Of a stretch of 64,000 bases of DNA, positions 13,856-62,388 are shown in pieces. Within the stretch, counting starts at the first letter, position 1. Each line of letters starts with the position of its first letter. The position numbers and the translations under genes are program-made. The DNA comes from an uncultured Planctomycetales bacterium (GTDB taxonomy: Bacteria > Planctomycetota > UBA1135). The notes below the pieces were generated by a model, which was given only the letters and a program-made list of their open reading frames with translations, was not told the DNA's origin and ran no database searches. The stretch is taken from contig CAZPAY010000007.1 in assembly GCA_964584805.1 (NCBI GenBank), positions 8,117 to 72,116 on the forward strand, given 5' to 3'.

Positions 13856-14823
13856 TAGGGTTTGGTGTTGAGTCTATTGAGCTCTTGAGCGGCAAGAATA
13901 GTTAAATCTTTGGCGCCATTCCAATTCAAATGGTTGCGGTCCGCCCAAGTTTCGGGGGGAAAGCGTTTTGTGTCAGACAAATCAAGGACATACTTGATGA
14001 CAGCGGCCCGTTGGAGCGCTCGCCAATCGTCAGCCACAAACGATGTCTGCCTAGGAAAGCCCAGCCACAGGATTGAAACACCTTTAGCGGCAGCCAACTG
14101 CTCGACATGCGCAACAAGTTCGCGGAAAGCCGGGGGCGGATTGGATTGGGCTTGACGGCTTGCTCCAATCAATGGTCGCGAATAGCCTGTGCGGAATTGC
14201 ATCGGGGAAAACCCCCTACCGAGATGGCCATGGATGACTCGCCATTCGCTCTGAGGAGATACGGATTGTTCATCCACCACCTCAGAATGAAGCGAGAGTC
14301 GCAAAGGCATATTCGCTCTGTTTTTTGCGAAACTCAGCCAGTGATTGATGAGTTCCTCGATTGGCGCCCAAGAGAAAGGAGCAAGGGCCATTTGCTGAAA
14401 CAGCATTGGCGTCAAACTACTGGTGCGCCGCCAATCATGCCAAGCGTCCATGCGACGAGTTGATATATTGACCGAGTTAACCCGTGGGTCGAAATGTGAA
14501 GCTTCAAGAACCAGCCATTTCAATGATGGCTTCGCATTCTCAAGAATTCGCTCGGCATGGTAAGTCGTCTCAAGAAATGACATATCAGGGAGACCATAAT
14601 TAAATGAAATCCGCCCAGCAGTTCTGGGAAGATAAACCTCATCAAATTGAGCGGGGTCAAGTTGCCGATAAACCAAACTAGAACCTACAAAAACGACCTC
14701 AACTTGATTCGCATTTTCTTCGAACCAAGCTAGCTTCCCTACACCTGGAAGCCAATCTCGCAACATAATTGCGGCGAACAGAAACGAAACCAAAAAAACG
14801 GCGGCTGAGAAAACGCGCATCAT
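13855..14823 (-). CDS. SGNH-hydrolase-like (DltD-like) exported protein, paralog 3
   Basis: N-terminal TM anchor; VVFVGSS, FNYG, C-terminal DRNHLN..GA. Confidence 0.7.
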   Translation of the reverse strand: MMRVFSAAVFLVSFLFAAIMLRDWLPGVGKLAWFEENANQVEVVFVGSSLVYRQLDPAQFDEVYLPRTAGRISFNYGLPDMSFLETTYHAERILENAKPSLKWLVLEASHFDPRVNSVNISTRRMDAWHDWRRTSSLTPMLFQQMALAPFSWAPIEELINHWLSFAKNRANMPLRLSLHSEVVDEQSVSPQSEWRVIHGHLGRGFSPMQFRTGYSRPLIGASRQAQSNPPPAFRELVAHVEQLAAAKGVSILWLGFPRQTSFVADDWRALQRAAVIKYVLDLSDTKRFPPETWADRNHLNWNGAKDLTILAAQELNRLNTKP

Positions 14824-15884
14824 TCGTGCATCGATGACTCAGGCGCAGTCATTTTAAGTCGCTGAATTCTCAGGATTTCTTGAGCAACCAAAGAAGTCAT
14901 TTTCTTTGCGCCACGCCAATTGAGATGCCCGTAGTCGTAGCGCAACTCATCGCCATACCATGCGGAAGATAAAGTCGGGTCAGAAAAATCAATCAAGTGA
15001 TTCAGAATGCCTGAGTCTTGCAAATAGTGCCAATCTTGTTCGCCCGCACCGGGGTGGATAAACCACAAAATCTCAGCGCCGCTTTCATCCGCCACAGCTT
15101 CAAGGCGCTCGACGACGCGCTTAAGTTCCTCGGGGGCAGAGGCTTTCTTGAGAGTGGCGGGCAAGGCGCGCGCTTGCAATTCGATCCTCTTTCTCTTTTT
15201 TTGAAGTGAGGCAAAGTTCCCACGATCATGAAGCGTAAGGTTATTGCCCTGTAGCGGTGTAAACCCATGCAAATCATAACCAACCTGTTCGAGGTGTTCG
15301 GGAGTCGCTAGATTGTCTTTCGCCCCAATGGAGGCAAAGACATCGCCCGCGAGGCCCATATTGGAAAAGCGTTGGCCCCAGAGTCGAAGGTGCCCCAGGG
15401 TCTCAATGAGCCGACGAGATATATGGCTTAAGGATGGCTGACGCATAGAAGAACACCAAAGAGCATAGACACAACCCAATGTGCGCTCCATGTCATGCCA
15501 CTCGACTTGACGATAACTCGCTGCATTATCACGGTCGATCGCACCATGCATCTCGAACGCCTCAACGACCACCCATCTGACAGTACCCTCACTCTGCTTC
15601 AGAACGCGTTCGGCAAGATATGTAGATTCTGAAAGCTGCGAACCTGGCTGCCCGAGATTGAATGCTCGAAGTGGCTCACCGCCTTGAGCGGTAGTACGCT
15701 CAAAATGCTTTGGGTCGAGTTGGCGATAGACATGGCTTGAGCCAACAAAAACGACTTCTGCATTTTGTCCCTGCTCAAGGAACCAAGCATACTTGCCCAT
15801 TTCGGGCGACATCGCACGCAAACCGATGGCGACGAGACCAAAGGTGAACAGAAACGCGGCAGCAGAAAGGAGGTAAAGCTTCAC
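14820..15884 (-). CDS. SGNH-hydrolase-like (DltD-like) exported protein, paralog 2
   Basis: N-terminal TM anchor; VVFVGSSH, FNLG, C-terminal DYGHLN..GA. Confidence 0.72.
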   Translation of the reverse strand: MKLYLLSAAAFLFTFGLVAIGLRAMSPEMGKYAWFLEQGQNAEVVFVGSSHVYRQLDPKHFERTTAQGGEPLRAFNLGQPGSQLSESTYLAERVLKQSEGTVRWVVVEAFEMHGAIDRDNAASYRQVEWHDMERTLGCVYALWCSSMRQPSLSHISRRLIETLGHLRLWGQRFSNMGLAGDVFASIGAKDNLATPEHLEQVGYDLHGFTPLQGNNLTLHDRGNFASLQKKRKRIELQARALPATLKKASAPEELKRVVERLEAVADESGAEILWFIHPGAGEQDWHYLQDSGILNHLIDFSDPTLSSAWYGDELRYDYGHLNWRGAKKMTSLVAQEILRIQRLKMTAPESSMHE

Positions 15885-15899
15885 GGCGGGATTGCCTAT

Positions 15900-16931
15900 T
15901 CACTTTAGCAAATCCTTGGCTATTAGCGCGGTCATCAGGCGAGCGCCATCGGCATTGAGGTGGTCAAAATCGAATCGCAAATCCGATTGATACCATTTGG
16001 AGGACAAAGTCGAATCACTGTAATCCAGAACATGTTTCGCCACCCCCCTTCGAGCGAGGTCTTTCCAACCCTCGGCTGGCGTCAGGCCGGGGTGAATCAG
16101 CCACAAAATACGGACGCCCTGCGCGAAGGCTTTTGCCTCGATTCGCGCCACTTCAGATTCGAGTGCGGGGTGTGCCGGGATATCCCAAGGATCATCAGCG
16201 ACACTACGGCGCTTGCCAATAAACGGGTCAGCATCGGCAAGAAACTCTTTGCGGCGACGCTTTTCTGATTTAGATTTGCCCGCGCCTATCAAGGGTCGGA
16301 AGCCCGTTTGGTTGACTCCTAAACCAGCCTTGGCCTCATAATCACGAGGCGTGCCGAGAAAAAAAGCATCAAACGCACCTGGCCCGCGGTCGAGATTACC
16401 CAGTCGATGAAAATAATGTGCAAAATGGCGACCAAGCAAATCTAAGCTGCCATCCGTCGAAAAGGCAGGCATCACTTGCAACAGGGAGGCCATCCGCCGC
16501 TCGTCATGCCAATCAATTTGCCGCCGTGACAAATCGTTTTCGGGATTCATTGCCGCTTCAAGAGTGGCGCCTTCGAGCACGAGCACTTTGAGCTGGGCCA
16601 TTTTGCGATTCAAAATGCGGTCGGCCCAATAAGTCGTCTCGGCGAAATGAGCGCCGGGGTAGCCAAGATTGAAAGCCTGCCAATCATGGCCGGATTTTGC
16701 CATCTCATCATGCAACACGGCTGGATCCATTTGCCGCAAGACATGGCTCGAACCGACAAAAATGACTTCATACTGTTCTTCGTTTTCAGTCAACCAAGCA
16801 AACTTCATTTGCTCCGGAGCAACGGCGCGCACGGCTTCGGAAGTCACCCAAAAGGCGATGAGAAAAACAACAAGTGCAACCGCTGCGCGAAAGGCACGGG
16901 GCCCAAATCCAGCGCGCGCAGTCAACGGCAA
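15900..16931 (-). CDS. SGNH-hydrolase-like (DltD-like) exported protein, paralog 1
   Basis: N-terminal TM anchor; VIFVGSSH, FNLG, C-terminal DFDHLN..GA. Confidence 0.72.
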   Translation of the reverse strand: MPLTARAGFGPRAFRAAVALVVFLIAFWVTSEAVRAVAPEQMKFAWLTENEEQYEVIFVGSSHVLRQMDPAVLHDEMAKSGHDWQAFNLGYPGAHFAETTYWADRILNRKMAQLKVLVLEGATLEAAMNPENDLSRRQIDWHDERRMASLLQVMPAFSTDGSLDLLGRHFAHYFHRLGNLDRGPGAFDAFFLGTPRDYEAKAGLGVNQTGFRPLIGAGKSKSEKRRRKEFLADADPFIGKRRSVADDPWDIPAHPALESEVARIEAKAFAQGVRILWLIHPGLTPAEGWKDLARRGVAKHVLDYSDSTLSSKWYQSDLRFDFDHLNADGARLMTALIAKDLLK

Positions 16932-16940
16932 ATCGACCGC

Positions 16941-17642
16941 CTAACCGAAAAGGTTAAAACGCACGATGTGCCACAAAGCGGCCACGCCATCGCGCCAACC
17001 GATTTTTTTACCTTCGGCGTAATCGCGACCGTAATAACTGATGGGCACCTCATAGATGCGCACGCGCTTGCCGTTGAGGCGACGACGCGCCACCTTGGCA
17101 GTAATCTCTGGCTCAAAGCCAAAACGGTCTGACTTGATTTCAACCCCTTGCAAAACCTCGCGTTTGAAAACTTTGTAGCAAGTCTCCATATCGGTGAGGT
17201 TCAAGTTGGTGAACATATTGGAAACCATCGTCAGAAAAGTGTTGGCCATCTGGTGCCAATACAGGTGCACGCGGGTCATCCGCGAACCTTTGAATCGAGA
17301 GCCGAAAACGACATCGGCCAAACCGCGCTCGATTGGCTCAAGCAAAATCGGATATTCGCCGGGGTCGTATTCGAGGTCGGCGTCTTGAATCAAAACAACA
17401 TCGCCAGTGGCGTGTTGAAAACCCGTGCGTAAAGCGGCACCCTTGCCTTGATTGACATCGTGATAGAAAATTTTAATATCACTATCATTTTCAAGTGTTT
17501 TCAAAATCTCACGCGTGTTATCGACGGAAAAGTCATCGACCATGATGATTTCCTTTTCAAATGGCGTAGCACGGACGCGCCCCAAAATTTCGAGGAGAGT
17601 TTCTTGCTCGTTGTAGACCGGGATGACGACGGACAGTTTCAC
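16941..17642 (-). CDS. GT2 glycosyltransferase (polyprenol-phosphate glycosyltransferase-like)
   Basis: Motifs [48 protein letters not shown]. Confidence 0.93.
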
Positions 17643-20997: not shown

Positions 20998-21019
20998 CAA
21001 TGACAGATTTTTACGACTT

Positions 21020-21516
21020 TTACGATTTCTTCACAAACTGCGTCAAAATCACGATGAGTTGGCCGCTGATACGCCCCTCAATATGCTCTGCGTTATCAGC
21101 AACGAGACGGATATTCCGCACCGCTGTACCGCGCTTAGCCGTAAAGCCACCACCTTTCACATTGAGGTCTTTGATTCAGCGGAAGCCCAGCCTTGTGTTT
21201 CGTCGTCGAGATACAACATGTCGAGCAAAGCCTGCGGCCAATCTTCCGTGGCAGCAAGATGATTCAGCACGCGCCATACCAAAACTTGGACGGCAGAAAT
21301 ATCTGACCACATGCTGTCATTGAGGCAACGCCAATGATTGGCATCGATACGAGCCGGGTCAGCGAGTTGGGCCACACAGCTGGTGCAAGCCAAAACGAAC
21401 TCATCCGCCGAATCACCTGGTTTCGGTCCAACGGCAAAAGCAGTCAAGCCGTCGGACGCTGCGCACAACTCACACTGTGAATTCGCGCGTTGATTTAGGG
21501 TGTTGAGCAACTCCAT
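21020..21516 (-). pseudogene. PhnA/YjdM-family protein gene with an internal deletion and frameshift
   Basis: The N-terminal half (CELC...HWRCLNDSMWS...QALLDMLYLD) stops at 21157. The PhnA C-terminal domain (IKDLNVKGGGFTAKRGTAVRNIRL...IEGR...ILTQFVKKS*) follows in another frame to 21020. The usual linker is absent. Confidence 0.8.
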
Positions 21517-21544
21517 GATTGGAGGTTTTATAGCATCGAAGTGT

Positions 21545-22006
21545 TTAGTCGACTGGCCCAAGCAAAGTCGCAATCAGCTCTTGAGCTTGTTTTTCCGTGA
21601 AGCCGTATTGGCCGTAGGAGATCAAGCCAACGCCCGGTAACCGCGAATGGACAATGGGGGCAGCCAAAAGCTCACCATCAACAAAAACGGCCATTTTTTT
21701 ACCGATAGCGGCCTCGGTCAAATCGGAATAAGCCCTGACTTGAGATTCCGCGACCTCAAAAGAAATCACTCGTTCATCGTTCACACCCGTTGACTCACCC
21801 GCATAAGAAATGTAAAAAAAATGAGGCTCGCCAAAATGGGCTTTCTGCGCATAGCCGCCAACACCCTCCCACAAAAAAAGCTCGCCCTCGGACTCATCGC
21901 ACTCGATGCGTACTTCAAGCGGGCCAGGACCAAGATCAACGCGTTGGCAACTCAGCGCAAGAGCCATGATCATCACAACAAAAGCAGGCCGACGACTAAA
22001 CATCAC
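21545..22006 (-). CDS. Lipoprotein with a stand-alone SecDF P1-head-like domain
   Basis: Lipobox ALSC; [24 protein letters not shown]...I...FTEKQAQEL resembles the SecD periplasmic head. There is no TM core. Confidence 0.65.
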
Positions 22007-23141
22007 TAGAAAGCTTAACGACCTTAATCTTGTTCTTCAGCAACTTCTCAATCGCCCGGAGCAGTTTCTGCTCTTCTTCGGAAACAAGCGAAACGGCATG
22101 ACCTGGCTGCCCCGCGCGCCCCGTACGCCCAATCCTATGCACATAATCTTCGGGCACATGCGGCAAATCATAATTTACGACATGCGGCAATTGCTCGATA
22201 TCAAGCCCACGCGCGGCAATATCCGTAGCGACTAAAACGCGCGCTCTGTCATTTTTAAAATCGGCTAGTGCGCGTGTGCGTGCGGCTTGTGACTTATTCC
22301 CGTGAATCGCAAGTGCGGAAATTCCAGCGTTTTCAAGCTGCTTTGCTAAGCGATTCGCACCATGTTTGGTGCGCGCAAAAACCAAGACTTTCTTCCATTT
22401 GCCCTCACGAATGATATGCACCAGCAAGGCCTTCTTTTTCAACTTTTCAACGTAGTGCACAACCTGAGAAACCTTAGCCGCTGTGGCATTTCGTTTGGCG
22501 ACTTGTACTTCAACGGGTTGATCTAAAAACTCGTCCGCCAATTTGCGTATTTCACGCGAAAAAGTAGCTGAGAAAAGCAAGTTTTGCCGACGCTCCGGCA
22601 AAGCATTCATGATCTTCTTAATATCACGAATAAAGCCCATATCTAACATGCGGTCGGCCTCATCCAAAACCAGAGTATCAACCTGATCCAATCGAATATT
22701 TTTCTGATAAATATGATCGAGCAAACGCCCTGGAGTCGCCACCACAATATCAACCCCAGATTTCAGGCGCGCGGTTTGCGGGTTGATGTTTACCCCGCCA
22801 AAAATCACCATCGAGTGCAATTTCAAAAACCGACCATAGATTCTCACACTATCTTGCACCTGCGCCGCCAACTCACGCGTTGGCACCAAAATCAAAACAC
22901 GCACCACACGACGGCGACCTTGCGTTGGGTTAACTTGCATCCGCTGCAAAATCGGCAACACAAAGCCTGCGGTCTTACCTGTGCCCGTCTGTGCCCCCGC
23001 CAACAAATCATGGCCGTCTAGCACAACCGGAATCGCATCACACTGAACCGGTGTCGGCTTGCTGTAACCCTGCCCCTTGACGGCATCGAGCAATTCGCGC
23101 GACAAGCCCAACTGATCAAAATTCACAACTTTGTTTTTCAT
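21996..23141 (-). CDS. rhlE: DEAD-box ATP-dependent RNA helicase (RhlE-like)
   Basis: Motifs [41 protein letters not shown]. Confidence 0.92.
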
Positions 23142-23203
23142 CTTTTAATACGCAAACTGCACACGGCACAATGCCGCGGCGAAGCCCTACGGTTGGGCGT
23201 CGG

Positions 23204-26200
23204 CTAGGCCCCCGATTCAATTTCGAGATCACTTACAACTTCACGCACACCACGAGCCGCAGGATCGGTCAGATTGTTTTGCACCACAACCTTACGCACA
23301 ACAGGAGTCGCGCCGTCGAAGTCGGTCTTTTCAAAACCACCCTCAGGTAGCTTCTCAAGATCAACGCTCACGACCATCGACTGACCGCGCTTACGCATGG
23401 TCACGCCAAATAGACGCTCACAGTGTGACATCGTGATGCGGTTGTGCGTCACGACCATAAACTGAGTCGTGCCTTTGAAGTCATTCAAGACATCCAAGAA
23501 ACGCTCAACATTGGCATCATCAAGTGCTGCGTCAACCTCATCCAGCAAACAAAACGGGCTCGGGCGAGATTGAAAGACAGCCAACAACAGCGCCAAAGCC
23601 GTCAAGGTGCGTTCGCCACCAGACAGCAAATTGATCGAGCGCAACTCTTTACCCGGAGGGCGCACCGAAATTTCGATGCCCGCATCAAGTGGGTCTTCCC
23701 CTTCGGCGAGCTTCAATTCAGCTTTACCGCCGCGGAACAAGCGCCGGAAGATGTGTTCGAACTGCCCCGTGACCTTGTTGTAGGTCTCTAAGAAGCGGTC
23801 GCGACATTTTGTATCGAGATCAGCAATCGTTTCTTCAAGGCTCAATCGCGAGGTTGTCAAGTCATCGCGCTCGCCAATCAAAAACTGCTCACGCTCTTGG
23901 CGCTCTTCCAGCTCTTTCACGGCATCGAGGTTGACCGAACCAATACGATCAATCTTAGTACGCAATTCGACTAACTCAACACGCATGGCTTCCGGCTCAA
24001 GCCCCTCGGGCACAGGCGCGGTTGGATCAATCCCAAGCGTGCGCGCCAATTCTTCCACCGGCTGATGAAACTCATCAATCACGCCACGCACTAATTCTTC
24101 GCGGCGCATCTGCGCGCGCTGCATCCCGAGTGCCTTTCCTTGACGGTCGCCCATCAACCTTTCAATCACACCTTCATCACCTGATCGACTGCGCCGCTCT
24201 TCTTGGACGGCATCGCTTGCGCGCGACCACTGCGTCTCGGCTTCGCCGCAACGCTCGTCAAGTCCACCACGCCGGTCCAAAAGAGCAGTGCGCTCTTCTC
24301 GCGCCGTGGCAGCTTCAGCGCGCAATGATTCTGCACGAGCAACCAGCTCGCCGATTTCGGTTTCAAGACTTTGGCGTTCGGTAGAGAACCGCTCCGCCTC
24401 TTGGCGGAAATCTGCAATACGCTCTTCTGCATGAGCCGTAGCCTGCATCACGCGCGCATGCTCGCCGCGCGCCTCTTGGAAGCTCTGACTCGCCGACTCA
24501 TAAGAACCCTCGCAGGCAGCCTGCTTGCCGCCGTAACCCTCAAGGCGCTCATTTCGCTCAAGGCGTAAAGCCTCTGCAGCATCTCGAGCGGCCGTGTGCT
24601 GTGCCTCTTCCGTGACGGCCTCATCAAGTGCAACACGCAAGCGATCCGCTTCACCATCAAGTGCCGCCGCCTCTTCCGATGCACGGGCCACCCTATGACG
24701 GACGCCCTGCGCTTGAGCAGAAGTTTGCTCAAATGTCGAGACGGATTCACGCAACACCTTATCCGTTGATGAACGCTGCGTTTGAGCTTCCGTCAAAGCC
24801 GCCGTTGCCGTAGCCTCTAGAGCCTCAACTCGCTCAAGCTCAATTTGAGCCGATTCGTTTTCGCGACCAGCTTGCTCAAGAGCATTACGACGAGCCAAGA
24901 CACCCGTCGCCTCTTCGGCGAGCAGACCCACACGCGCCCAACCGCGACCATGGATTTCGCCATCAGCCGACAAGAACAGAGCCGTGGGACTCTCGCCCGC
25001 AAGAGCTGCAGCACGGGTGCCATGTTCCACGCACCAAATGTTGCCCAAGCGTGCAGACAAGGCCTCGCAACGAGTCGCATCACCGGTGAGATGGCTGCGC
25101 AGCGCAGTTGCCCCCTCTGGCGCATCCATTGCAGGGGTATCTCCCTCAACGGGGAAAAATAAATCAAAGACGCCATCATCTAGATCTTGGCGACGCTGCC
25201 GGCCATCCGCCCAAAGCCCGTGTTGCAAACGACCGAGCAAATTTTCAACCAAGCGATCCCAGGGTGCCGGAACGCGGACGCCATCGAGCAAGAGCCCCGA
25301 AAAGCCTTCTGCGCCAGATTCGAGTAGTTTGCGCACTTTCTCTGGAGTGCCGTGCCCCTCGTCATCTACAGAGGCTAATGCATTGAAACGCGCCTTGGAA
25401 CTAGCGGAAGTCTGCCGCGCCATGCGAGCGGCATCGGTGAATCCCTGCGCCTCGGCGCTGAGTCGCTCAACCTCGGAGACCGCTTGATTGTGCGCGCCTT
25501 GCGCGGATGTGCGTGCCGCCTCAGCATCAGCCAAGGCTTGCTCTGTTTGCTCCGACTCAAGCTGAAGCGGAGTGTGTTCTTCTTTCAAATGCTGGCGACG
25601 GCGGTCGAGTGCCTGCATCGCGCCCTGTGCTTCCGAACGCGCACGCGCAGCCTCGGCCATCAAATTGTTGTGCGTGGTGCGCTCGCCCAAAGCCTCAAGC
25701 ACGCTCTTGCGCAATTCTTCCAACTCACCCATCAAGGCGCGGCGAGCATCGCGCGCAACCGTAAAGGCCTCTTCCGCTTCTTTCAGACCTGCGTCAGCTT
25801 GTTCGCGGCGCGCGCTCAATGCGGCGACCTCTTCACGGACGCCTTCTGCGGATTCTTCACGACGGCCACGCTCGGCAACCATGCTCGTTAAGCGCTGACG
25901 GTCGCGCTCAAGGCGTGATTCCGACTCACTCGCGCGTGTTTCCAAACCGTGGACACGCTCTTCCAAACCGGCAACTTCAGCACGCAAACCGGCCGACTCA
26001 CCGCGGAGCGACTCATAACGCTCGCGCAGAGTCGTTTCTTCCGATTCCAGTTCAGCCAAACGAGCGGCCGCACTTTCACGATCACTACGCAGGGCTTCAA
26101 TTTGTCGATCAAGTGTGGCGGTTTGCCCGCGTAACTCGCGCTCACTGCCCGCGAGCTCACCCGTTTCGAGCAGAGCAGAACGCACCCGCAACTCGCGATA

Positions 26201-26863
26201 GCGATCGCGGAACTCCAAAAAGCGGCGCGCTTTACCCGCTTGGATTTTCAAAGAACGCACCGAGCGAGAAACTTCTTCGAGCACATCTTCGACACGCGAC
26301 AAATCGAGCTCAACACGATTGAGTTTCAAACGAGCTTCATGTTTGCGCGCTTTGTATTTGGATATGCCCGCAGCCTCTTCGAACACGCTGCGGCGCTCGG
26401 CAGGGTTAGCGGCCAATACAGCATCAATCTTGCCCTGAGCCAGCACCATGTAACCACGCACACCCAAGCCAGTGTCCATCAGCAAATCTTTGACATCTTT
26501 GCGACGCACCTTGCGGCCATTAAGCAAAAACTCAGCATCGCCCGTTGAGAAGAGTCGGCGCCCCACCGAAACTTCACCACCTGGCTCAGCAATTTTGCCC
26601 TCTTCGTCGCCAAGAATAATTTCGACCATCGCATAAGGCGCGGCCGTGCGACCCTCAGCGCCCTTAAAAATCACATCTTCCATCGCGTCGGCGCGCAGAG
26701 CTTTTGAAGAGCGCTCGCCCATCACCCACATCAGGGCATCGACAACATTGGATTTGCCGCAGCCATTGGGGCCCACAACCCCTGTGAGCCCGCGGTCAAC
26801 GGGGATAACGGTACGGTCGGCGAACGACTTAAAACCTTCGAGTTCGATGCGTTTAAGAAACAT
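23204..26863 (-). CDS. smc: Chromosome segregation protein SMC
   Basis: GFKSFAD, GPNGCGKSN, long coiled coils around a hinge, LSGGE, LDEVDAALD, VTH. Confidence 0.97.
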   Translation of the reverse strand: MFLKRIELEGFKSFADRTVIPVDRGLTGVVGPNGCGKSNVVDALMWVMGERSSKALRADAMEDVIFKGAEGRTAAPYAMVEIILGDEEGKIAEPGGEVSVGRRLFSTGDAEFLLNGRKVRRKDVKDLLMDTGLGVRGYMVLAQGKIDAVLAANPAERRSVFEEAAGISKYKARKHEARLKLNRVELDLSRVEDVLEEVSRSVRSLKIQAGKARRFLEFRDRYRELRVRSALLETGELAGSERELRGQTATLDRQIEALRSDRESAAARLAELESEETTLRERYESLRGESAGLRAEVAGLEERVHGLETRASESESRLERDRQRLTSMVAERGRREESAEGVREEVAALSARREQADAGLKEAEEAFTVARDARRALMGELEELRKSVLEALGERTTHNNLMAEAARARSEAQGAMQALDRRRQHLKEEHTPLQLESEQTEQALADAEAARTSAQGAHNQAVSEVERLSAEAQGFTDAARMARQTSASSKARFNALASVDDEGHGTPEKVRKLLESGAEGFSGLLLDGVRVPAPWDRLVENLLGRLQHGLWADGRQRRQDLDDGVFDLFFPVEGDTPAMDAPEGATALRSHLTGDATRCEALSARLGNIWCVEHGTRAAALAGESPTALFLSADGEIHGRGWARVGLLAEEATGVLARRNALEQAGRENESAQIELERVEALEATATAALTEAQTQRSSTDKVLRESVSTFEQTSAQAQGVRHRVARASEEAAALDGEADRLRVALDEAVTEEAQHTAARDAAEALRLERNERLEGYGGKQAACEGSYESASQSFQEARGEHARVMQATAHAEERIADFRQEAERFSTERQSLETEIGELVARAESLRAEAATAREERTALLDRRGGLDERCGEAETQWSRASDAVQEERRSRSGDEGVIERLMGDRQGKALGMQRAQMRREELVRGVIDEFHQPVEELARTLGIDPTAPVPEGLEPEAMRVELVELRTKIDRIGSVNLDAVKELEERQEREQFLIGERDDLTTSRLSLEETIADLDTKCRDRFLETYNKVTGQFEHIFRRLFRGGKAELKLAEGEDPLDAGIEISVRPPGKELRSINLLSGGERTLTALALLLAVFQSRPSPFCLLDEVDAALDDANVERFLDVLNDFKGTTQFMVVTHNRITMSHCERLFGVTMRKRGQSMVVSVDLEKLPEGGFEKTDFDGATPVVRKVVVQNNLTDPAARGVREVVSDLEIESGA

Positions 26864-26877
26864 GTTTGGGGGCGAGG

Positions 26878-28584
26878 TTAAGAATCGGCGCGCCGCGATT
26901 GAGGGAGGCAGCGGGCGAGTGTGTCGCTAGACATAGAGTGCGCCGGCGCAGCAGCAAATTCCAGCCACGGAGTGACATCAAAATCGGCAACGGTCGGCAC
27001 AGCGGAGGAAGAATCGAGTCGCCAGCCACAAGAATAGCTAGAACAACCCGGCAAAGCGTCAGCCTCAGCAAGGCGAACACCGGTCGCCTCAGAGTGAGGC
27101 GGGTAAGCATGCTCAGGAATCAGCCCGACCTCGCGCGCAGCCCGGTCAAACATTGAGCGGATGTTGAGCACAAAGCGACGGCCGCGATCAGCATTAACGG
27201 GCGTATCCGGACGCAACTGATGCCAAGCCTCAGTAAGCCCGGCCGGCAGCAAACAAACCGTCGCACGAGGGCCGTGGCCTGCGCGCTCCGCCAATCGATG
27301 GACAGCGCCCGCCGCCAAAGTTGCCGTCTCAAAGAGCGCATCGCGGAAGGCATTATCTGCCCACGCGCCCGCTTGAATCGCCAGTTGAGCAAGATTGATA
27401 ACCGCAAAGCCATCGAGCTGTCGGTGCGCCAAAGTCGAGGCGGATGGCATCTTAGCCGGTGGTTGCCAAGTTAAAACCGTGTGATTGAGGGCGGCCAACT
27501 TTTGAGCAAATTGAGGTTCAGTCAGCTCAAGGCCAGAAAACGCCGCTGCACTCATGCGATGCATGCGCCCAGACTTGGCCCAATCAAGCGCCAGTTGCGG
27601 GTCAGTGGTCGCCAAACGAAGCCGGCTCGTTGAGTCGGTCAGCCAATCAGGAGCCGTACGCGAAAGCTCACTCGCTTGAGATTCAGGATCACCTTGGTTC
27701 CGCTGACCAGGCCAGAAAACTTGAACCTCGGCAGCTTTTTGCCTAGCAGCAGAAACACGACGCCAGAAAGCTAGCTCACTCTCTTCTGGCTCAGGATGCA
27801 AACGCACGCGTGCCGCTCGCATCCAGTCATTGAGACGCGGAAGTGCGAACGCTCCCGCCGCCAAAGCTTCAGATTCAGGCGGAGTCAAAATCTCATCAAG
27901 CGCAAAACGCGCCAAGATTTCACCGCCCAACATGGGGCGCGTATCGGTGCCTTCCGGGCTCATTGCTGGCATCGGGCCGCCTGCGCCCTCAAGAGGCAAA
28001 CAGTCGCCACTCAACCATGCGCGCAAATGACGGCGCTCAAGTCCCACGCGCGGATCGCCCATTGGCTCCGCGGGTAAGCCCAAGGCGCGGCACTCATTGT
28101 CGGCGCATGCGGCAACAAAACGAGCCGTCAAATGCAACCAATTGCCGGCGGCGATACGGCGCTCAACTTTGCAAGCCACATCACGAGCCACCCCGCGCTC
28201 AAGGAATCGGTCTCGCACGAGGGCCAAGCCCAAACGCTCGCGGTCCCAAGGCAATGACTCGGGCCGAGCGCCTGCGACGGTGTGCACTCGCAAACGAGAA
28301 ACAGCAAATCGGCGCGCGCGACGGAAAGCGACGAAGGCATCCGCTGCCCGCGCATCAAGCGCACGCAATTCGTATTCAAGTGCGACGGACAAATCGGCGG
28401 TATCGACCATCTCGCGAGAATCCATGGGTGCATTCGCCCACGCCTCGGCGGCCATCAAAGAAGTCGCAACGCCGCTCAAGCCAACACTGGCCAAAGCCAA
28501 TTCAGCGGACTCAGCGAGCTTGAAAGTGTCAAAGCCCTGCTCGAAGCCGTCGCGCTTACGAACCCGAGCCGTCGCTATCGCCAT
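26878..28584 (-). CDS. ATP-cone-containing protein resembling a degenerate class III ribonucleotide reductase (NrdD-like, catalytic motifs missing)
   Basis: N-terminal VRKRDG..QGFD..KL ATP cone; a second cone-like region PWDRERL...VERRI; NrdD-like blocks [11 protein letters not shown]...[34 protein letters not shown]. No RxxGY and no C-terminal CxxC pairs. Confidence 0.65.
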
Positions 28585-29044
28585 AAGGCATCTTGCCCTC
28601 TAGAAAGGGCTTGAGCTCACTGATGAACTGGCCGACATCTTTGAACTCGCGATAAACGGAGGCAAAGCGGACATAAGCCACTTGGTCGAGGCCCTTGAGC
28701 TCGTCCATGACAAGCTGGCCAATGTATTTACTGCCCACCTCATGCTCAAACATCTCTGCCAATTTGCGCTCGATGCGAGAAGTGATTTCTTCAAGCGATT
28801 CAAGCGAAACGGGGCGTTTTTCACATGATTTCAACATGCCTTTTAGAATGCTGCCACGGTCGAACGGCACGCGTGAGCCATCTTTTTTGACGACCCGCAG
28901 AGGCGTTTCTTCCATGCGCTCGTAAGTGGTAAATCGACGCGAGCAATCCATGCATTCGCGGCGACGGCGAATCGAAAAAGCATCAGCCGCGGCACGAGAA
29001 TCAATGACGCGGTCGTTATCTTGTTTGCAGAAGGGGCAACGCAT
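28556..29044 (-). CDS. nrdR: Transcriptional repressor NrdR
   Basis: MRCPFC...VIDSR...[21 protein letters not shown] cone [16 protein letters not shown]. Start trimmed to MRCPFC. Confidence 0.97.
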
Positions 29045-29084
29045 GGCAGTAATACGGGGAGGTCTACCCCGTGAACCCGCAAAA

Positions 29085-29104
29085 TACCACAATACCTAGT
29101 GGTA
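29085..29104. promoter_or_regulatory. NrdR-box-like palindrome upstream of nrdR
   Basis: TACCAC-AATACCTA-GTGGTA. The core ccaCAAtAccTAGtgg (29087-29102) matches the NrdR-box consensus acaCwAtATaTwGtgt at 12 of 16 positions, about 40 bp from the nrdR start. Confidence 0.68.
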
Positions 29105-29144
29105 AGGCAAGAACGAACCGCAAGAACTCGCATTGCGACTTCCT

Positions 29145-30482
29145 TCATTTTCCAAGGCAAAAGCCGGAAAACAGGCGGTCAAGTAGGTCTTCGGGGGTTA
29201 ACTCCCCAACCAGCGCACCGATTGCCGACAAGGAAGCCCTTAATTCTTCCGCGATAAGCTCCTGAGGGCCTTGGTTTTGCTCGAATTCACGAGCGCGTGC
29301 CAAAGCCACAGAGGCCGCGGCTAGAGCTTCTTGATGTCGCTCACCCACCGAAAGCAATGCTTGTCGGGTGCGACTCACGGATTGAAGTAGTTCAGCCGAA
29401 GCCGACTGAAGGTCATCGACCGACCAGACAACTTTGATGCCTGACGCTAATGAGGCAAAGACCTCATCGGGGATGGCTCGCGGCAAATCAGTTTTTGCGC
29501 AGTAGACCAATCGGGGAGCCAGAGTTGGAGGCAAGAGCACTTTGGCATCTGCATCAGCAGAATCGACCACACACCACCAAGCGTCCATTTCAGCGAAATC
29601 TTGCTCGGCACGCTTTCGCGCGGCTGCATCTCGCTCATCGACGGCTTCGCCACCGAGGCCGGGGAAATCACACAGTACCCACTCACCCCACGGCGACTCA
29701 AGGCGGTCGCGGGTCGTGCCCGCTTCATCCGTAATCAAGACATTAGCACCGGTCAGTTTTGCGAAAAGCGTCGACTTTCCGGCATTTGGAGTGCCAATCA
29801 GGCCAATGCGCCAAAGACCATCATGCCGCAAGCGTCGCTGCGTCTCTACGCGTTGACTTTGCGCAAGTGCGGCTTCGGCATCACAAAGCAGACCGTCAAT
29901 CTCAGCGGGTTGGACATCTTGAGAGTCACCCTCCTCGAAATCGAGTGCGGCCTCGACTTGAACCAAAGCACTTGTAAGTGCCTCACGCGCCGCCATCAAA
30001 CCCTCAGCCAATCCGCCCGCCAAAACCGACTGAGCCGCCCGTGCCTCATCTGCATTGCGTGAGCCAACCAAACCCAAAACGGCCTCAGCTTGGGTCAGGT
30101 CAAGCTGGCCATTTAAAAAGGCACGGCGCGTGAATTCTCCTGGCTCAGCGAGTCGCACCCCTTGAGTATGAAAATGCTCAAGGAGCAATTCCGTGATAGC
30201 AGGGCTGCCGGGGTAATGCAGCTCAAGTACATCTTCCCCCGTAGCAGAATGAGGTCCTGGGAAGACAAAAACGGCAACCGCTGCCTCGCAGGCTGGAGCA
30301 AATTCAAGCACGCCTTCACGCACCTCTCGTCTGTTTCGCGGTTGCGGGCATTGGGCCGGCAAAAACCCATCGGACTGAGCCAGTAAATCTGGGCCGCTCA
30401 ATCGCAAGACGGCCCGCTCGGCAACCCCCATCGGGGTCGCCGAAGCGATGATGCAATCGCGCCTACTTGCCCTTGGCGTCAT
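29145..30482 (-). CDS. mnmE: tRNA modification GTPase MnmE
   Basis: Motifs RLSGP, SATGEDVLELH, AEPGEFTRRAFLNG, GTPNAGKS, GTTRD, C-terminal FCLGK. Confidence 0.93.
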   Translation of the reverse strand: MTPRASRRDCIIASATPMGVAERAVLRLSGPDLLAQSDGFLPAQCPQPRNRREVREGVLEFAPACEAAVAVFVFPGPHSATGEDVLELHYPGSPAITELLLEHFHTQGVRLAEPGEFTRRAFLNGQLDLTQAEAVLGLVGSRNADEARAAQSVLAGGLAEGLMAAREALTSALVQVEAALDFEEGDSQDVQPAEIDGLLCDAEAALAQSQRVETQRRLRHDGLWRIGLIGTPNAGKSTLFAKLTGANVLITDEAGTTRDRLESPWGEWVLCDFPGLGGEAVDERDAAARKRAEQDFAEMDAWWCVVDSADADAKVLLPPTLAPRLVYCAKTDLPRAIPDEVFASLASGIKVVWSVDDLQSASAELLQSVSRTRQALLSVGERHQEALAAASVALARAREFEQNQGPQELIAEELRASLSAIGALVGELTPEDLLDRLFSGFCLGK

Positions 30483-32298
30483 CGGCCGTGGGGACAGGCC
30501 AGTGTTTTTTGATTACCTTCGACTCGAAGATACCCACGAGTGAGGAAGTAATCATGTAAAGCGACAAGCCAGCTGCGTAGTTGTAGAGCATCACACCGAA
30601 CAACACCGGCATGAAGGCCATCATTTTTTGCATCTGCGCCTGCTGTGGGTCGGTGGACTTAGGCATCGTTTTCTGATGCATCACCCACAACACAACCATC
30701 ACGATCGGCAACAAGTTAAAAGTCGTGATAGCACTAATGAGCGGGTAATCAGCAATCGGGCCACCAAAATCAATCATCGCATCGGGGCGGGACAAGTCTT
30801 GCACCCAACCCACAAACGGTTTTTGACGCAATAAGATGGAAGACCGCAAAGCTGCGAAAAGGCCAATAAACACAGGAAACTGCAGCAACATCGGCAAACA
30901 GCCACCAATCGGCGGAGACACCTTGTGCTCTTTGTAAAGCTTCATGGTCTCTTGTTGCTTACGCTGTGGGTCTTTACCGAACTTGGCGTTAATCGCATCA
31001 ATCCTTGGCTTAATCTTGGCCATCTTGGCTTGATAGCCAGCCATCTTGACTTGACTCGTACGGTTGATTGGAAACAACAAACTACGCACAAGCAGCGTCA
31101 TCAAGATAATCGCAAAGCCCCAGTTGCCTACGATACCTTGGAAGAATTCAACCAACCAAAGAATGAACGGAGCAATGAAACCCGTTCCAAACATGCGGTA
31201 GAAAAACGAGTTGTCAAAGTCAGCCATGCCTGGCAACTCAGCCATCTCGCCGAATTGACCCTCAGTCAAATAGGCTTTATCTTTCGGGCCAAGGTACCAC
31301 TGGAAATCACGAGTCGAGACCTCGTCAACACGCCCCATGCGCATCGAAAATGCACCTGCAACCGAAGTGCGCTGCCAGCTGTCAGAATTTTCAGCCCGCG
31401 CCACCACATGGCTTTCAGAAGTGCGCAGCTCTTCCAAGAAAAGCTCGTCATCGTGCAGAGTCTCTGCCGTAGCACCACGAAAATCATGATCTAGGGCGTG
31501 AATCGCACTCAAGAAATACTTAGACCCCTCAACAATGAAAGGGATATCGCCATTCCAGGAAGCGGCGCGCGACCGGGCATCAGGCAAACCACCCGAGGGA
31601 TGATAAATATCAAGTTTATCCAATTCACCGTGATCGCGAAGCGCAGCACCCGAATATGGGTTTGGGTAAAAAGGGTCGCGCTCGCGCATAATCGATCCGC
31701 CTGTGCTGAGTCGCAATGAAACCGTGTCGCCAGCCGCCTCTTGCGTTTGCGGGACGGCATCAATCGACGCCTCAATGTGATAATCACCGGGCGCCAAGCG
31801 CAATGTCTTCCGCAGGAGGTACCCCCCCTCAGTTGCTAATTCAAAAACAAGCTCTGAATCAGTCTGCGAGGTCAACTTCCACTCTTTACTCTCAATGGCC
31901 TCGCCAGAGGAATCGCGCAAAGAAAAAGCATCACGCGTGCGGTAATGAAAGTGACGCGCAGCGATGCCGTCGCCCGGGACTTTCCCTTGGACGCGCGCGG
32001 AATCCAAGAGGACAAGCCAATCTTCTTCCGGAATTGTCAACGCATCGTCAGGTCGGAAATCAGCATAACGCTTGAGCAAGACTTTGCCGCACGATGCGCC
32101 GGTCGCCGACCATGCGGAGCGCAGCAAATCGTTTTCGAGGACAACGGGGTAATCCGTTGGGGCGACCATAGAGAAGTCTTCCTTGGAAGCTTGCCCGATT
32201 GATTCGCCTGGTTTCGCCGAATCTGGCGAACAGGCCTTGAACATCAAAATGGCAATGACCGCCCAAAGGACGAAAGTAAGCAGGGAACGATTTTTCAT
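30463..32298 (-). CDS. yidC: Membrane protein insertase YidC
   Basis: Motifs NWGFAIILMTLLVR, GGCLPMLLQFP, WVQDLSRPD, DPQQAQMQKMM, AGLSLY. Start trimmed to MKNRS. Confidence 0.95.
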   Translation of the reverse strand: MKNRSLLTFVLWAVIAILMFKACSPDSAKPGESIGQASKEDFSMVAPTDYPVVLENDLLRSAWSATGASCGKVLLKRYADFRPDDALTIPEEDWLVLLDSARVQGKVPGDGIAARHFHYRTRDAFSLRDSSGEAIESKEWKLTSQTDSELVFELATEGGYLLRKTLRLAPGDYHIEASIDAVPQTQEAAGDTVSLRLSTGGSIMRERDPFYPNPYSGAALRDHGELDKLDIYHPSGGLPDARSRAASWNGDIPFIVEGSKYFLSAIHALDHDFRGATAETLHDDELFLEELRTSESHVVARAENSDSWQRTSVAGAFSMRMGRVDEVSTRDFQWYLGPKDKAYLTEGQFGEMAELPGMADFDNSFFYRMFGTGFIAPFILWLVEFFQGIVGNWGFAIILMTLLVRSLLFPINRTSQVKMAGYQAKMAKIKPRIDAINAKFGKDPQRKQQETMKLYKEHKVSPPIGGCLPMLLQFPVFIGLFAALRSSILLRQKPFVGWVQDLSRPDAMIDFGGPIADYPLISAITTFNLLPIVMVVLWVMHQKTMPKSTDPQQAQMQKMMAFMPVLFGVMLYNYAAGLSLYMITSSLVGIFESKVIKKHWPVPTADDAKGK

Positions 32299-32315
32299 GA
32301 AATCTTGGTGACGCT

Positions 32316-33086
32316 TTATCGACCGACGAAGAGTCGTTGCGCGAGCGATTCTGGAAGGCCAGCCGCAAGAATGCGCCGAGCCGCGGCCTCGAAGTCGTAA
32401 GCGACACGCCGCCAACGCACGGTTTCGCCATCAAACAGGGCGTAACAAGCTCGCGCATCACGGTCGCGCGGTTGCCCCACACTGCCAACATTAACGAGGT
32501 ATTGACGGTCTGGCTCTAAAGTGATTTTCGCTTCAGCGTGATTTGCAAAATCAGGTTTTGCAAAGGGTCTTGATTCTTGAAAAAGACCGGGGTGATGCGT
32601 GTGACCATAAAAAGTCACGCGCTCAGTCGCGGCCTCAAAATTAGCCAACAAGCGCTCGTTACTCGGCGGCATGTTAGGCAGCAAATATTCAGCAAGCGGC
32701 TCGCGGGGAGATGCATGCACCATCTGAAAGCGAATTGAGCCCTTTTCATAGACTGCCTCTGGCCGCAACTCACCCATCCAGTCCCAGAAAGCGTGATTCG
32801 CTTCAAGTTCGGGGTCGAGGGCGCGACGAGTCCAATCAACGGCCAACAGGGCGCGCTCATGAAAGCCATAAGCCTGGCGATCGTCGAGCACAGCGGCATC
32901 ATGGTTGCCAAGCAAAGTCAACTCGCAACGCTCCATCACCTTGCGCATGACATCTGCGGGCGATGCGCCATAGCCAACCACATCACCAAGACAAACCACG
33001 GCATCCACACTCTGGGTGTCGATGTCGCGGAAGACGGCGTCCACTGCCTCGAAATTGGCGTGGAGATCAGAAACGATAGCAATCAT
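32316..33086 (-). CDS. Calcineurin-like metallophosphoesterase
   Basis: Motifs SDLHAN, LGDVVGYG, GNHD, GHTH, NVGSVGQPRD. Confidence 0.92.
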   Translation of the reverse strand: MIAIVSDLHANFEAVDAVFRDIDTQSVDAVVCLGDVVGYGASPADVMRKVMERCELTLLGNHDAAVLDDRQAYGFHERALLAVDWTRRALDPELEANHAFWDWMGELRPEAVYEKGSIRFQMVHASPREPLAEYLLPNMPPSNERLLANFEAATERVTFYGHTHHPGLFQESRPFAKPDFANHAEAKITLEPDRQYLVNVGSVGQPRDRDARACYALFDGETVRWRRVAYDFEAAARRILAAGLPESLAQRLFVGR

Positions 33087-61302: not shown

Positions 61303-61319
61303 CTCTAGAATGCAACGGA

Positions 61320-62312: not shown

Positions 62313-62388
62313 TGGTGAGGGCACCAGGACTTGAACCTGGGACAAATTGGTTAAAAGCCAACTACTCTACCAACTGAGTTATGCCCCC
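62313..62388 (-). tRNA. tRNA-Lys (anticodon TTT)
   Basis: Reverse complement GGGGGCATAACTCAGTTGGTAGAGTAGTTGGCTTTTAACCAATTTGTCCCAGGTTCAAGTCCTGGTGCCCTCACCA: 76 nt, cloverleaf, TTC loop, encoded CCA. Confidence 0.97.

Follow-up and report, generated by a model that had tools for sequence, protein, structure and literature searches.

The 64-kb window, which is the whole stretch of DNA analysed here, contains three consecutive genes on its reverse strand: nrdR (28556-29044, 162 aa from an ATG at 29044), an open reading frame that we call X (26878-28584, 568 aa), whose product is NrdD-derived, and smc (23204-26863, 1219 aa, TIGR02168). The nrdR stop codon (28556-28558) lies inside X, whose ATG is at 28584, so that these two genes overlap by 29 nt, and the X stop codon (TAA, 26878-26880) is separated from the smc ATG at 26863 by a spacer of 14 nt (26864-26877). 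A consensus scan of positions 21000-33000 placed no terminator-like site at the nrdR-X or X-smc junction; a single weak site lies within X (28489-28467), and the 17 sites found over the scanned region compare with 18.2 expected from shuffled sequences. With a shared strand, minimal spacing, junctions free of terminator-like sites and no enrichment of promoter-like sites between the genes, the arrangement has the appearance of an operon. A preliminary description of this DNA had proposed these three gene calls, including an NrdD-like and catalytically dead middle gene, together with the overlap, the 14-nt gap and the lack of a terminator; family profiles, relatives, fold comparisons, coordinates and the terminator scan agree with it on each point. 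Its observation that scpA and scpB are not adjacent extends to the whole window, as no ScpA/ScpB, ribonucleotide reductase (RNR) or NrdG family was found by a Pfam scan of 52 ORFs of at least 90 aa, 11 of which matched no family.

The products of the two outer genes are readily classified. NrdR matches TIGR00244 at 5.4e-59 (198.5 bits against a cut-off of 124.65) and contains a zinc ribbon (PF22811, Zn_ribbon_NrdR, 5e-20, residues 17-58 of the listed ORF) and an ATP-cone (PF03477, 6.2e-22). The listed ORF (28556-29092, reverse strand) opens at a TTG at 29092, and because the family models begin at its residue 17 and this TTG falls within the operator palindrome described below, translation most likely begins from the ATG at 29044 (MRCPFC...). 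Counted from this Met, the translation has all of R12, D15, R17, R26-29 and R37, the residues reported to contact DNA in NrdR (PMC9110341). SMC matches TIGR02168 over residues 2-1169 (1.6e-259, 864 bits against a cut-off of 567), with a Walker A motif at residue 31, the LSGGE signature at residue 1080 and a Walker B motif. The full-length TIGR02168-type protein is what is found in the canonical Smc-ScpAB arrangement, whereas here smc closes a unit headed by nrdR in 64 kb without scpA or scpB, and in this lineage the SMC hinge is missed by PF06470, which gives no match even at E ≤ 1.

The window X protein has no family match of its own beyond a sub-threshold ATP-cone, and none to PF13597, so its classification as NrdD-derived is based on its relatives and its fold, which both show NrdD-type matches. 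Among long-form relatives at the same locus, an ATP-cone was found in 15 of 15 and PF13597 (NRDD) at E ≤ 0.1 in 14 of 15, four of them above the gathering score. Across 66 representatives of the X family only three families were matched, including the ATP-cone in all 66 and NRDD in 27 (best 3e-21); Gly_radical (PF01228) was not one of the three. The family profile also matches the NrdD ATP-cone of 8p23 at 2.2e-5. When the predicted model of the X body (pLDDT 89.7) was searched with Foldseek, all ranks down to 32 were class III RNRs (E 4.7e-8 to 2.9e-4, TMq 0.40-0.58), and a class I RNR first appeared at rank 33. Judged by these comparisons, the ancestor of X was a class III ribonucleotide reductase that had two ATP-cones.

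Three parts of this ancestor can be recognized in X, all on the reverse strand. Residues 7-96 (28297-28566) form the outer ATP-cone (Pfam ATP-cone, E 0.011), in which K10, R11, D12 and G13 are invariant and E15 is nearly so in the family alignment. Residues 99-170 (28075-28290), which include the sequence ADNECR, form an inner, degenerate ATP-cone-like module that is a hairpin plus helices in the predicted models and aligns to the region that makes up the second ATP-cone in the long forms. Tandem-cone RNRs such as the class Ia NrdA of P. aeruginosa likewise have a conserved outer and a degenerate inner cone (PMC9669993); unlike X, they are active reductases, whereas the cones of X sit on a dead core. 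According to the model and the Foldseek matches, residues 220-568 (26881-27927) constitute an NrdD-type core without the radical machinery, ~130 residues shorter than the long-form core and, in the alignment of short forms, rich in invariant residues. X thus resembles NrdD of E. coli, T4, T. maritima, P. copri and S. thermophilus in its N-terminal ATP-cone, its NrdD-type barrel and remnants of the H-x-x-G-D-x-H and V-x-L-N-L-P-R-x-A motifs. It differs from them in lacking the Zn-ribbon, the glycyl-radical loop, the conserved catalytic cysteines and a nearby nrdG in the window, and it is ~140 residues shorter than the E. coli protein.

In E. coli NrdD, C384 is the thiyl-radical Cys of the finger loop, C175 is its partner Cys and G681 carries the glycyl radical. 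G681, whose identity was verified, lies with four zinc cysteines in a C-terminal tail of 136 aa that follows S576 of the YYTNS motif. The invariant G520 of X aligns with S576, and the short forms continue for 42-51 aa beyond it. In window X, the 48 residues that follow the YTNS-equivalent motif contain no glycyl-radical loop of the RVxGY type and no CxxC pair of the C-terminal four-Cys zinc site. Only five of 170 X-family sequences have two CxxC pairs in their last 150 residues, and only one of the 170 combines these with RIAGY. At the candidate finger-loop column (GPGC), the position of which is approximate in a weak alignment, window X has Leu and 42 of 158 family sequences have Cys; the position equivalent to C175 is not Cys in window X, as read from an alignment to E. 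coli NrdD that is weak in this region. No NrdG activase was found in the 64-kb window, where the sole radical-SAM ORF (61281-62276) is a Radical_SAM plus Radical_SAM_C protein 32 kb away. According to these alignments, the Zn-ribbon and the glycyl-radical tail are gone from X, as is, in the window lineage, the finger-loop cysteine. Even so, the dN/dS of X relative to the closest related locus (L001) is 0.094, against 0.055 for NrdR, 0.048 for SMC, 0.107 for MnmE and 0.083 for RhlE, values that are rough because dS is 0.8-2.0 and near saturation. Together with a family of 491 representatives at 50% identity (E ≤ 1e-30), this pattern of substitution indicates that X is a real gene under purifying selection and not debris, so the word 'relic' used for it in the preliminary description is misleading.

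Upstream of nrdR, a sigma-70 scan identified a -35-like hexamer (TTGCCT, 29105-29110), an 18-nt spacer and a -10-like hexamer (TATTTT, 29081-29086) that is preceded by a TG, all on the reverse strand; the best sigma-70 score before nrdR is 8.31, compared with 6.33 in controls. The spacer contains a palindrome (box B, 29087-29102, reverse strand) that provides this TG and holds the sole match in 64 kb to the core CACWANNNNTWGTG, for which 0.21 matches are expected per window and at least one was seen in 20 of 100 shuffles. Box B agrees with the NrdR-box consensus at 12 of 16 positions, and all 1,744 control windows scored lower; its centre is GT rather than AT, and it has five of the six key positions reported for the 16-bp box (C4, A6, A8, T9, T11 and G13; PMC13584703). 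In relatives the box is flanked by TTGACA-like and TAnAAn elements, with TTGACA itself at the -35 position of distant relatives and TGGTAGAAC or TGGTAAAAA immediately 3' of the box. Between -100 and -30, the top-scoring box reaches at least 11/16 in 27 of 46 sequences (0.3% of the 1,744 control windows) and at least 9/16 in 42 of 46 (10.7% of control windows), whereas four sequences that keep the three genes (L024, L027, L038 and L039) have no box above 7/16 in this interval. The palindrome noted in the preliminary description thus recurs at this location in 42 of 46 sequences and, by its sequence and position, is a positionally conserved NrdR-type box that overlaps the nrdR promoter.

NrdR is reported to require two boxes with linkers of 15-16 or 25-26 bp, a single box being left unbound (PMC12051234; PMC13584703). 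A candidate distal box (box A, 29118-29133, reverse strand) lies beyond a 15-bp linker from box B, has five of six key positions (C4, A6, T9, T11 and G13) and shares 14 of 16 bases with L001. Judged by motif, such pairs are not above chance (seven in 64 kb compared with 7.8 in shuffles), and pairs with at least five of six key positions in each box occur upstream of nrdR at only three of 45 loci (L001, L018 and L042). A weaker C4/G13 site is located 31 bp downstream of the box in 18 of 39 loci, more than at any other offset, and C4/G13 sites are also enriched at +42 (6 of 15).

The comparison set consists of 45 related loci, all found via X and mutually related, so the counts that follow are not independent events and are silent on genomes without X. 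A Planctomycet* label is attached to 42 of the 45, which identifies the host as a planctomycete, a possibility that the preliminary description had raised. In this set nrdR is directly upstream of X at every locus (45/45), and smc is downstream of X at all 40 loci with enough contig, the other five contigs ending in or just past X; the conservation of the triad that the preliminary description proposed to examine is therefore observed. In 34 of the 37 loci where the gap was measured, X and smc are separated by -4 to +36 nt (frameshifted X calls account for two of the three outliers), and nrdR and X overlap at nine loci as well as in the window, where the overlap is 29 nt. The flanks are variable: mnmE is upstream in only 27 of 35 loci, and the genes downstream of smc fall into 16 unrelated clusters at the 31 loci compared, in 19 cases on the opposite strand. 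Identity to the window SMC is as low as 29%, so by these comparisons the nrdR-X-smc order has persisted across deeply diverged Planctomycetota, with changing genes on either side.

These features lead us to propose, with a probability of roughly 55%, that nrdR, X and smc are transcribed together, as a single unit, from a promoter with an NrdR operator in its spacer; we infer both co-transcription and NrdR binding from the sequence, and some read-through into the unit from yidC-mnmE is possible. On this view the locus is a conserved nrdR-pseudoNrdD-smc operon that is probably autoregulated by NrdR, and its packing suggests that the supply of SMC follows the level of DNA precursors. While dATP is plentiful compared with demand, NrdR in its dATP- and ATP-bound form would occupy the operator and shut down nrdR, X and smc; when replication draws these pools down, the operon would be released, so that SMC synthesis would track the same signal as RNR synthesis. 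X itself would be unable to reduce nucleotides and most likely persists as a regulator that binds ATP or dATP through its outer ATP-cone, with NrdR, the true RNR or SMC as candidate targets.

A different account, possible in our view and doubtful, is that the locus is an inherited nrdR-nrdD operon in which X acts in RNR control only, perhaps by binding NrdR or the true RNR via ATP-cone contacts, and that smc shares the transcript or the neighbourhood without any meaning for chromosome organization. It accords with the known existence of nrdR-RNR operons (nrdRJ; PMC9110341), with the N-terminal KRDG hairpin of the ATP-cone that X retains and with the nrdR/X overlap, and nothing among our findings ties X physically to SMC. 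It does not predict that smc should directly follow X in every informative locus, at gaps of a few nucleotides, despite the divergence of SMC and the turnover of the flanks. Nor does it anticipate the situation at one related locus (L005, a single case), where the X-smc gap has widened to 131 nt and contains a near-copy of the locus's own nrdR-promoter box and -10 element, followed by a second box 25 bp on, as if a box-bearing promoter had been placed directly before smc once the coupling loosened.

It is also conceivable, and in our judgement unlikely, that smc has its own unrecognized promoter in X or the spacer, in which case NrdR would govern at most nrdR and X. The scan covered the sigma-70 consensus only, X may contain promoters of other sigma factors, four sequences keep the triad and have no detectable box, and one locus (L014) scores 9 in the 300 nt preceding smc. 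However, the 300 nt ahead of smc give a best sigma-70 score equal to that of coding controls (6.85 in both), so no enrichment indicates the separate smc promoter that the preliminary description had named as the outcome that would tell against it; the usual gaps are too short for an intergenic promoter, and the sole long one (L005) bears a promoter with an NrdR box. That X is still an enzyme, either a reductase with another radical source or a protein with a different nucleotide-converting activity, is very improbable, since its well-predicted barrel, its many invariant residues and the family members with a finger-loop Cys are outweighed by the Leu and missing C175 equivalent of window X, the absent Zn-ribbon and glycyl-radical tail, the lack of an NrdG-type activase in the window and the shortened core.

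An extension of the proposed NrdR-controlled unit, which we consider improbable at present, is that X is a dedicated ATP/dATP sensor, putatively a planctomycete-specific accessory subunit, whose target is the SMC complex itself; it might, for instance, gate the loading of the complex, its ATPase cycle or its hinge. Co-evolution of X and SMC would be in keeping with the divergent hinge in the lineage that has the shortened X. If X does act on SMC, compaction and segregation would be tied to dNTP status twice, by NrdR at transcription and by a recycled reductase scaffold at the level of protein activity.

Retention of an RNR fold after loss of catalysis has a viral parallel in the catalytically inactive R1 homologues of betaherpesviruses, whose large-subunit fold has been selected and reused. 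Those proteins are class I, act on host signalling and have no ATP-cone sensor logic, and we know of no link between them and NrdR or SMC. The X family would provide a bacterial example of such a pseudoenzyme, an RNR homologue retained for something other than catalysis.

Among bacterial systems, the closest counterpart is the nrdRJ operon of S. coelicolor, in which nrdR is co-transcribed with a class II RNR gene and autoregulation acts via two NrdR boxes; NrdR is also reported to control its own gene frequently (PMC9110341). As in nrdRJ, nrdR comes first, an RNR-family gene follows, an NrdR box overlaps the promoter and autoregulation is expected (PMC9110341). Here, by contrast, the RNR-family gene is class III-derived and dead, smc is a conserved non-RNR third gene, and the second box is weak or unrecognizable in most relatives, so nrdR-pseudoNrdD-smc is a new form of this operon type. 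NrdR is treated as an RNR-specific repressor in the literature cited here, and no description of the X family or of an nrdR-smc link was found in a search of titles and the beginnings of abstracts outside subscription journals. A phylum-wide unit of nrdR, a dead reductase gene and smc would widen the NrdR regulon to chromosome organization and provide a mechanism, open to testing, for adjusting the supply of SMC in bacteria to the status of DNA precursors. With X comes a large, so far unnamed family of ATP-cone proteins derived from reductases, members of which, where they are named, are called 'hypothetical' or 'ATP cone domain-containing'.

Every gene of the region from yidC to rhlE is carried on the minus strand, in the order yidC (30463-32415), mnmE (29145-30482), nrdR (TIGR00244, 5.4e-59), X (the 568-aa NrdD-like ORF, 26878-28584), smc (23204-26863; TIGR02168, 1.6e-259) and a gene for an rhlE-type DEAD-box helicase (21996-23141). 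For nrdR, the listed ORF opens with a TTG (29092) that falls within the operator palindrome discussed below; because the family models begin at residue 17 of this ORF, translation most likely begins at the ATG at 29044 (MRCPFC...). The preliminary description had nrdR overlapping the NrdD-like ORF, that ORF ending 14 bp before smc, no terminator between the genes, no scpA or scpB nearby and an NrdR-box-like palindrome upstream of nrdR, and the gene calls, junctions, terminator scan and Pfam scans confirm this observation in every point. The end of nrdR lies inside X, with a measured overlap of 29 nt, and 14 nt separate the end of X from the smc ATG. The terminator scan returned nothing at the nrdR-X or X-smc junction and one weak site within X (17 sites overall, vs 18.2 in shuffles), and Pfam scans of 52 window ORFs found no ScpA, ScpB, RNR or NrdG family.

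A search with the window proteins (tblastn) of 45 loci, all of them found through X and mutually related, placed NrdR directly upstream of X in 45/45, and SMC downstream of X in 40/45, the contig ending in or just after X in the other five, so the synteny to which the preliminary description had looked for a check is present. The X-smc gap is between -4 and +36 nt in 34 of the 37 loci in which it could be measured; the outliers are L018 and L038, where the X calls are frameshifted, and L005. At the other junction, most loci have the nrdR stop and the start of X overlapping or no more than about 30 nt apart, with the same 29-nt overlap in 9. Among the 35 loci with sufficient upstream sequence, only 27 have the end of mnmE <400 nt from nrdR. 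RhlE is downstream in 1 of 45; the first large ORF beyond smc, compared across 31 loci, sorts into 16 unrelated clusters, and in 19 of these loci it lies on the opposite strand. Since the order of nrdR, X and smc is constant while the outer neighbors vary, the genomic sequences indicate that the triad is kept where its surroundings are not, over a range in which SMC identity to the window protein descends from 89% to 29%. Two loci (L012 and L014) contain an insert of ~2.3 kb between mnmE and nrdR, with box and triad intact.

Searched alone against Pfam, X gives a sub-threshold match to the ATP-cone only (E 0.011, residues 7-86), and a word-based search recovered 23 relatives of 39-100% identity, 20 of which have a precomputed ATP-cone domain; the two named ones are Planctomycetes/Planctomycetota MAG proteins called 'hypothetical' and 'ATP cone domain-containing'. 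The 45 loci, which come from one scan of species-representative genomes and carry a Planctomycet* label in 42 cases, include 19 with a short form of X (about 535-580 aa), and in more distant loci the gene at this position encodes a long form of about 600-735 aa that aligns end to end with the short one. All 15 long forms scanned match the ATP-cone (Pfam; 1.9e-3 to 7e-31, all but one <1e-20), 14 of them in two or three stretches, and 14 match PF13597 (NRDD) at E <= 0.1, the gathering score being exceeded in 4. A profile search of 1.84 billion representatives then gave 491 proteins at E <= 1e-30 (the best 150 of the 491 all at E < 1e-59); among 66 of these, the ATP-cone was matched in 66 and NRDD in 27 (best 3e-21), with no match to Gly_radical or a further RNR-related family.

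Structure prediction points in the same direction. A model of X residues 100-568 (128 sequences; pLDDT 89.7, pTM 0.84) was compared with the PDB using Foldseek, and among the matches listed, ranks 1-32 are all class III reductase chains (S. thermophilus, T. maritima, P. copri and phage T4; E 4.7e-8 to 2.9e-4, TMq 0.40-0.58), class I enzymes starting at rank 33. This model supersedes a full-length one (pLDDT 77.9) that had produced mixed class I and class III matches at TM 0.3-0.42, and a feature search of the ESM Atlas agrees with the class III picture. Alignment of the X family by hhalign to a low-diversity NrdD alignment matched the ATP-cone alone; the E. coli NrdD homologue search had returned proteins that were all at least 86% identical, unfit as a diverse NrdD profile. 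From the family Pfam matches, the Foldseek ranks and the ESM Atlas result, X is identified as a descendant of NrdD, and its parts are an outer ATP-cone, a degenerate inner cone and a trimmed barrel. Active RNRs are also known to carry cones in tandem, the inner one being degenerate (PMC9669993). In a FastTree phylogeny whose root is uncertain, the short forms constitute one clade (21 rows, support 100).

Two other features of the family were considered and set aside. The conserved 'ADNECR' sequence of X was rejected as an N-x-C-x-E-like catalytic motif, since it forms the final helix of the inner ATP-cone and reads VDNELV in long forms. An apparent NrdR-X fusion, the 664-aa family protein P0022, runs from an NrdR Zn-ribbon through part of a cone and an out-of-frame, Ser/Thr/Arg-rich low-complexity stretch into X; it is most likely the product of a contig frameshift and was counted as a case of adjacency only. 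Longer, fused forms of X did not turn up in a dedicated search, a negative that the search tool itself rates as weak evidence.

The residues of E. coli NrdD that we take to be key, along with their presumed roles, are C175, C384, the Zn cysteines 644, 647, 662 and 665, and G681, and all were found at those positions in the K-12 protein. Profiles of the X family align with residues 123-250 and 407-561 of this active class III enzyme, and an L-INS-i alignment that includes P0271, a 794-aa family member, places the invariant G520 of X on S576 of the E. coli YYTNS motif. The tail beyond this position has 48 residues in X, 42-51 in short forms and 76-103 in long forms, vs 140 in P0271 and 136 in E. 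coli NrdD. Because this tail is too short, the alignment indicates that the Zn-ribbon and the glycyl-radical loop are missing from X. A reading of G520-W521 as a glycyl-radical remnant was rejected, given that it aligns with the YYTNS motif (hmmalign was uninformative in this region). At the candidate finger-loop Cys column (GPGC), where the alignment is weak, Cys stands in 42 of 158 sequences and Leu in 40, while 30 are gapped; X of the window has Leu.

Two CxxC motifs are present in five of 170 family sequences, and only P0271 combines them with RIAGY. This protein also has two ATP-cones and an NrdD core, and its RIAGY is aligned to the glycyl-radical site of E. coli NrdD; judged by sequence, it resembles a complete intermediate between true NrdD and the dead forms. 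The other four proteins with two CxxC (P0247, P0277, P0282 and P0284) have no RIAGY-like Gly motif.

Compared with L001, the closest relative, dN/dS is 0.094 for X, comparable to 0.107 for MnmE and 0.083 for RhlE, ratios that are rough because dS is near saturation; YidC was left out of this comparison (wrong start, 21 codons only). These values argue that X is not decaying and is under purifying selection. The outer cone of the short forms has invariant K10, R11, D12 and G13 and a nearly invariant E15. A segment at about residues 175-220 of X (window 28075-27925, -) has pLDDT <50 in the full-length model, is somewhat better ordered in the body-only model, and is invariant in the short form at G181, R184, W190, L191, G193, C195, P197, P206, D214 and R216; this conserved, apparently unstructured segment is a candidate partner-binding site.

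Upstream of nrdR, sites were scored against a 16-bp sequence which we take to be the NrdR-box consensus. Within 100 nt upstream of nrdR, the best box (for the most part 41-82 nt from the start codon) matches at 12/16 positions in the window, a score that none of 1,744 control windows taken from these loci reaches, and at up to 14/16 in distant loci. Boxes of at least 11/16 occur in 27 of 46 sequences vs 0.3% of controls, and boxes of at least 9/16 in 42 of 46 vs 10.7%. The 14-base core of the window box occurs once in 64 kb (29088-29101; 0.21 expected). PMC13584703 gives six positions as highly conserved (C4, A6, A8, T9, T11 and G13), and the consensus used for scoring agrees with them. An alignment of the upstream regions places the box between a -35 element (TTGCCT, 29105-29110, -; TTGACA in many distant loci) and a -10 element (TATTTT, 29081-29086, -; TAGAAC or TAAAAA in relatives) that directly follows the box and takes its TG from the box end, which identifies a conserved, operator-like palindrome inside the predicted nrdR promoter. 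The DNA-contact residues listed in an excerpt of PMC9110341 (R12, D15, R17, R26-29 and R37) are all present in the window NrdR.

PMC12051234 and PMC13584703 report that NrdR does not bind a single box and requires a pair separated by 15-16 or 25-26 bp. A candidate second box (29118-29133, -; linker 15, 5/6 key positions) is kept in L001 inside a non-coding block of ~75 nt that is far better conserved there than the synonymous sites of the flanking genes. By motif alone, the window has 7 box pairs vs 7.8 in shuffles, and a pair that qualifies by spacing and motif lies upstream of nrdR in only 3/45 loci. By looser criteria, sites with C4 and G13 are enriched 31 bp downstream of the main box (18/39 cases, more than at any other offset) and also at 42 bp (6/15). 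Four loci (L024, L027, L038 and L039) have the triad and no box above 7/16; these have no mnmE upstream and yidC directly before nrdR, and in the last three a promoter-like site (TTGACA, 17 nt, TATCGG) is found in place of the box. The presumed 5' UTR of nrdR contains a GC-rich hairpin (29054-29072, -; -15.8 kcal/mol, z -2.15), which was rejected as a conserved element: only 11 of 46 sequences reach z < -1.5, and L001 has no counterpart.

In the 300 nt before smc, which lie inside X, the mean best score of sigma-70-like sites is 6.85, vs 6.85 in coding controls, and thus shows no enrichment; the 130 nt before nrdR score 8.31 vs 6.33 in controls. Only in L005 is the X-smc spacer long (131 nt, L005:9690-9820), and this spacer contains a near-copy of the locus's own nrdR operator and -10 element (22/24 bases identical), plus a second box-like site 25 bp further on that completes a qualifying pair. 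This one case is as would be expected if selection maintains NrdR control of smc.

With gene identities, architecture, conservation, loss of catalytic parts and purifying selection in place, a mechanism can be proposed. An excerpt of PMC9110341 describes NrdR loaded with dATP and ATP as binding DNA and repressing, and ATP-only NrdR as forming oligomers that do not bind DNA. On the basis of this published mechanism, a fall in dATP would free nrdR, X and smc from NrdR together with the RNR genes. We speculate that X itself binds nucleotides and serves a regulatory function. Among known systems, the autoregulated Streptomyces nrdRJ operon comes closest; the present one differs in that its reductase gene encodes a pseudoenzyme of class III origin, with smc as a conserved passenger. 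A literature search of titles and the starts of abstracts found no description of the X family, of nrdR and smc in one operon, or of an RNR pseudoenzyme in bacteria.

A complex predicted between X and the two halves of the SMC head (residues 1-215 and 1000-1185) scored 0.00 against a mark of 0.32, which gives no answer either way. The hinge of the window SMC (residues 480-700; 24764-25426, -) is unmatched by PF06470 even at E <= 1. This family matches 20 of 34 SMCs encoded beside X, including that of L033, which has a long-form X (1e-15), and not that of L005, which has a short form, so the SMC hinge may have diverged in the lineage with the shortened X.

Elsewhere in the window, three ORFs without a Pfam match (322-354 aa; 13855-16931) come after a gene for an MBOAT acyltransferase (12452-13855, -); two of them, of 354 and 343 aa, look like paralogues by eye. 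Next is a family-2 glycosyltransferase gene (16941-17642, -), and from its gene content, the stretch 12452-17642 (-) looks like a polysaccharide-modification cluster. An Rfam scan of the window matched only a tRNA, the tRNA-Lys at 62313-62388, which is the only tRNA found, and a gene for a SelB-type selenocysteine elongation factor is located at 59362-61302 (-).
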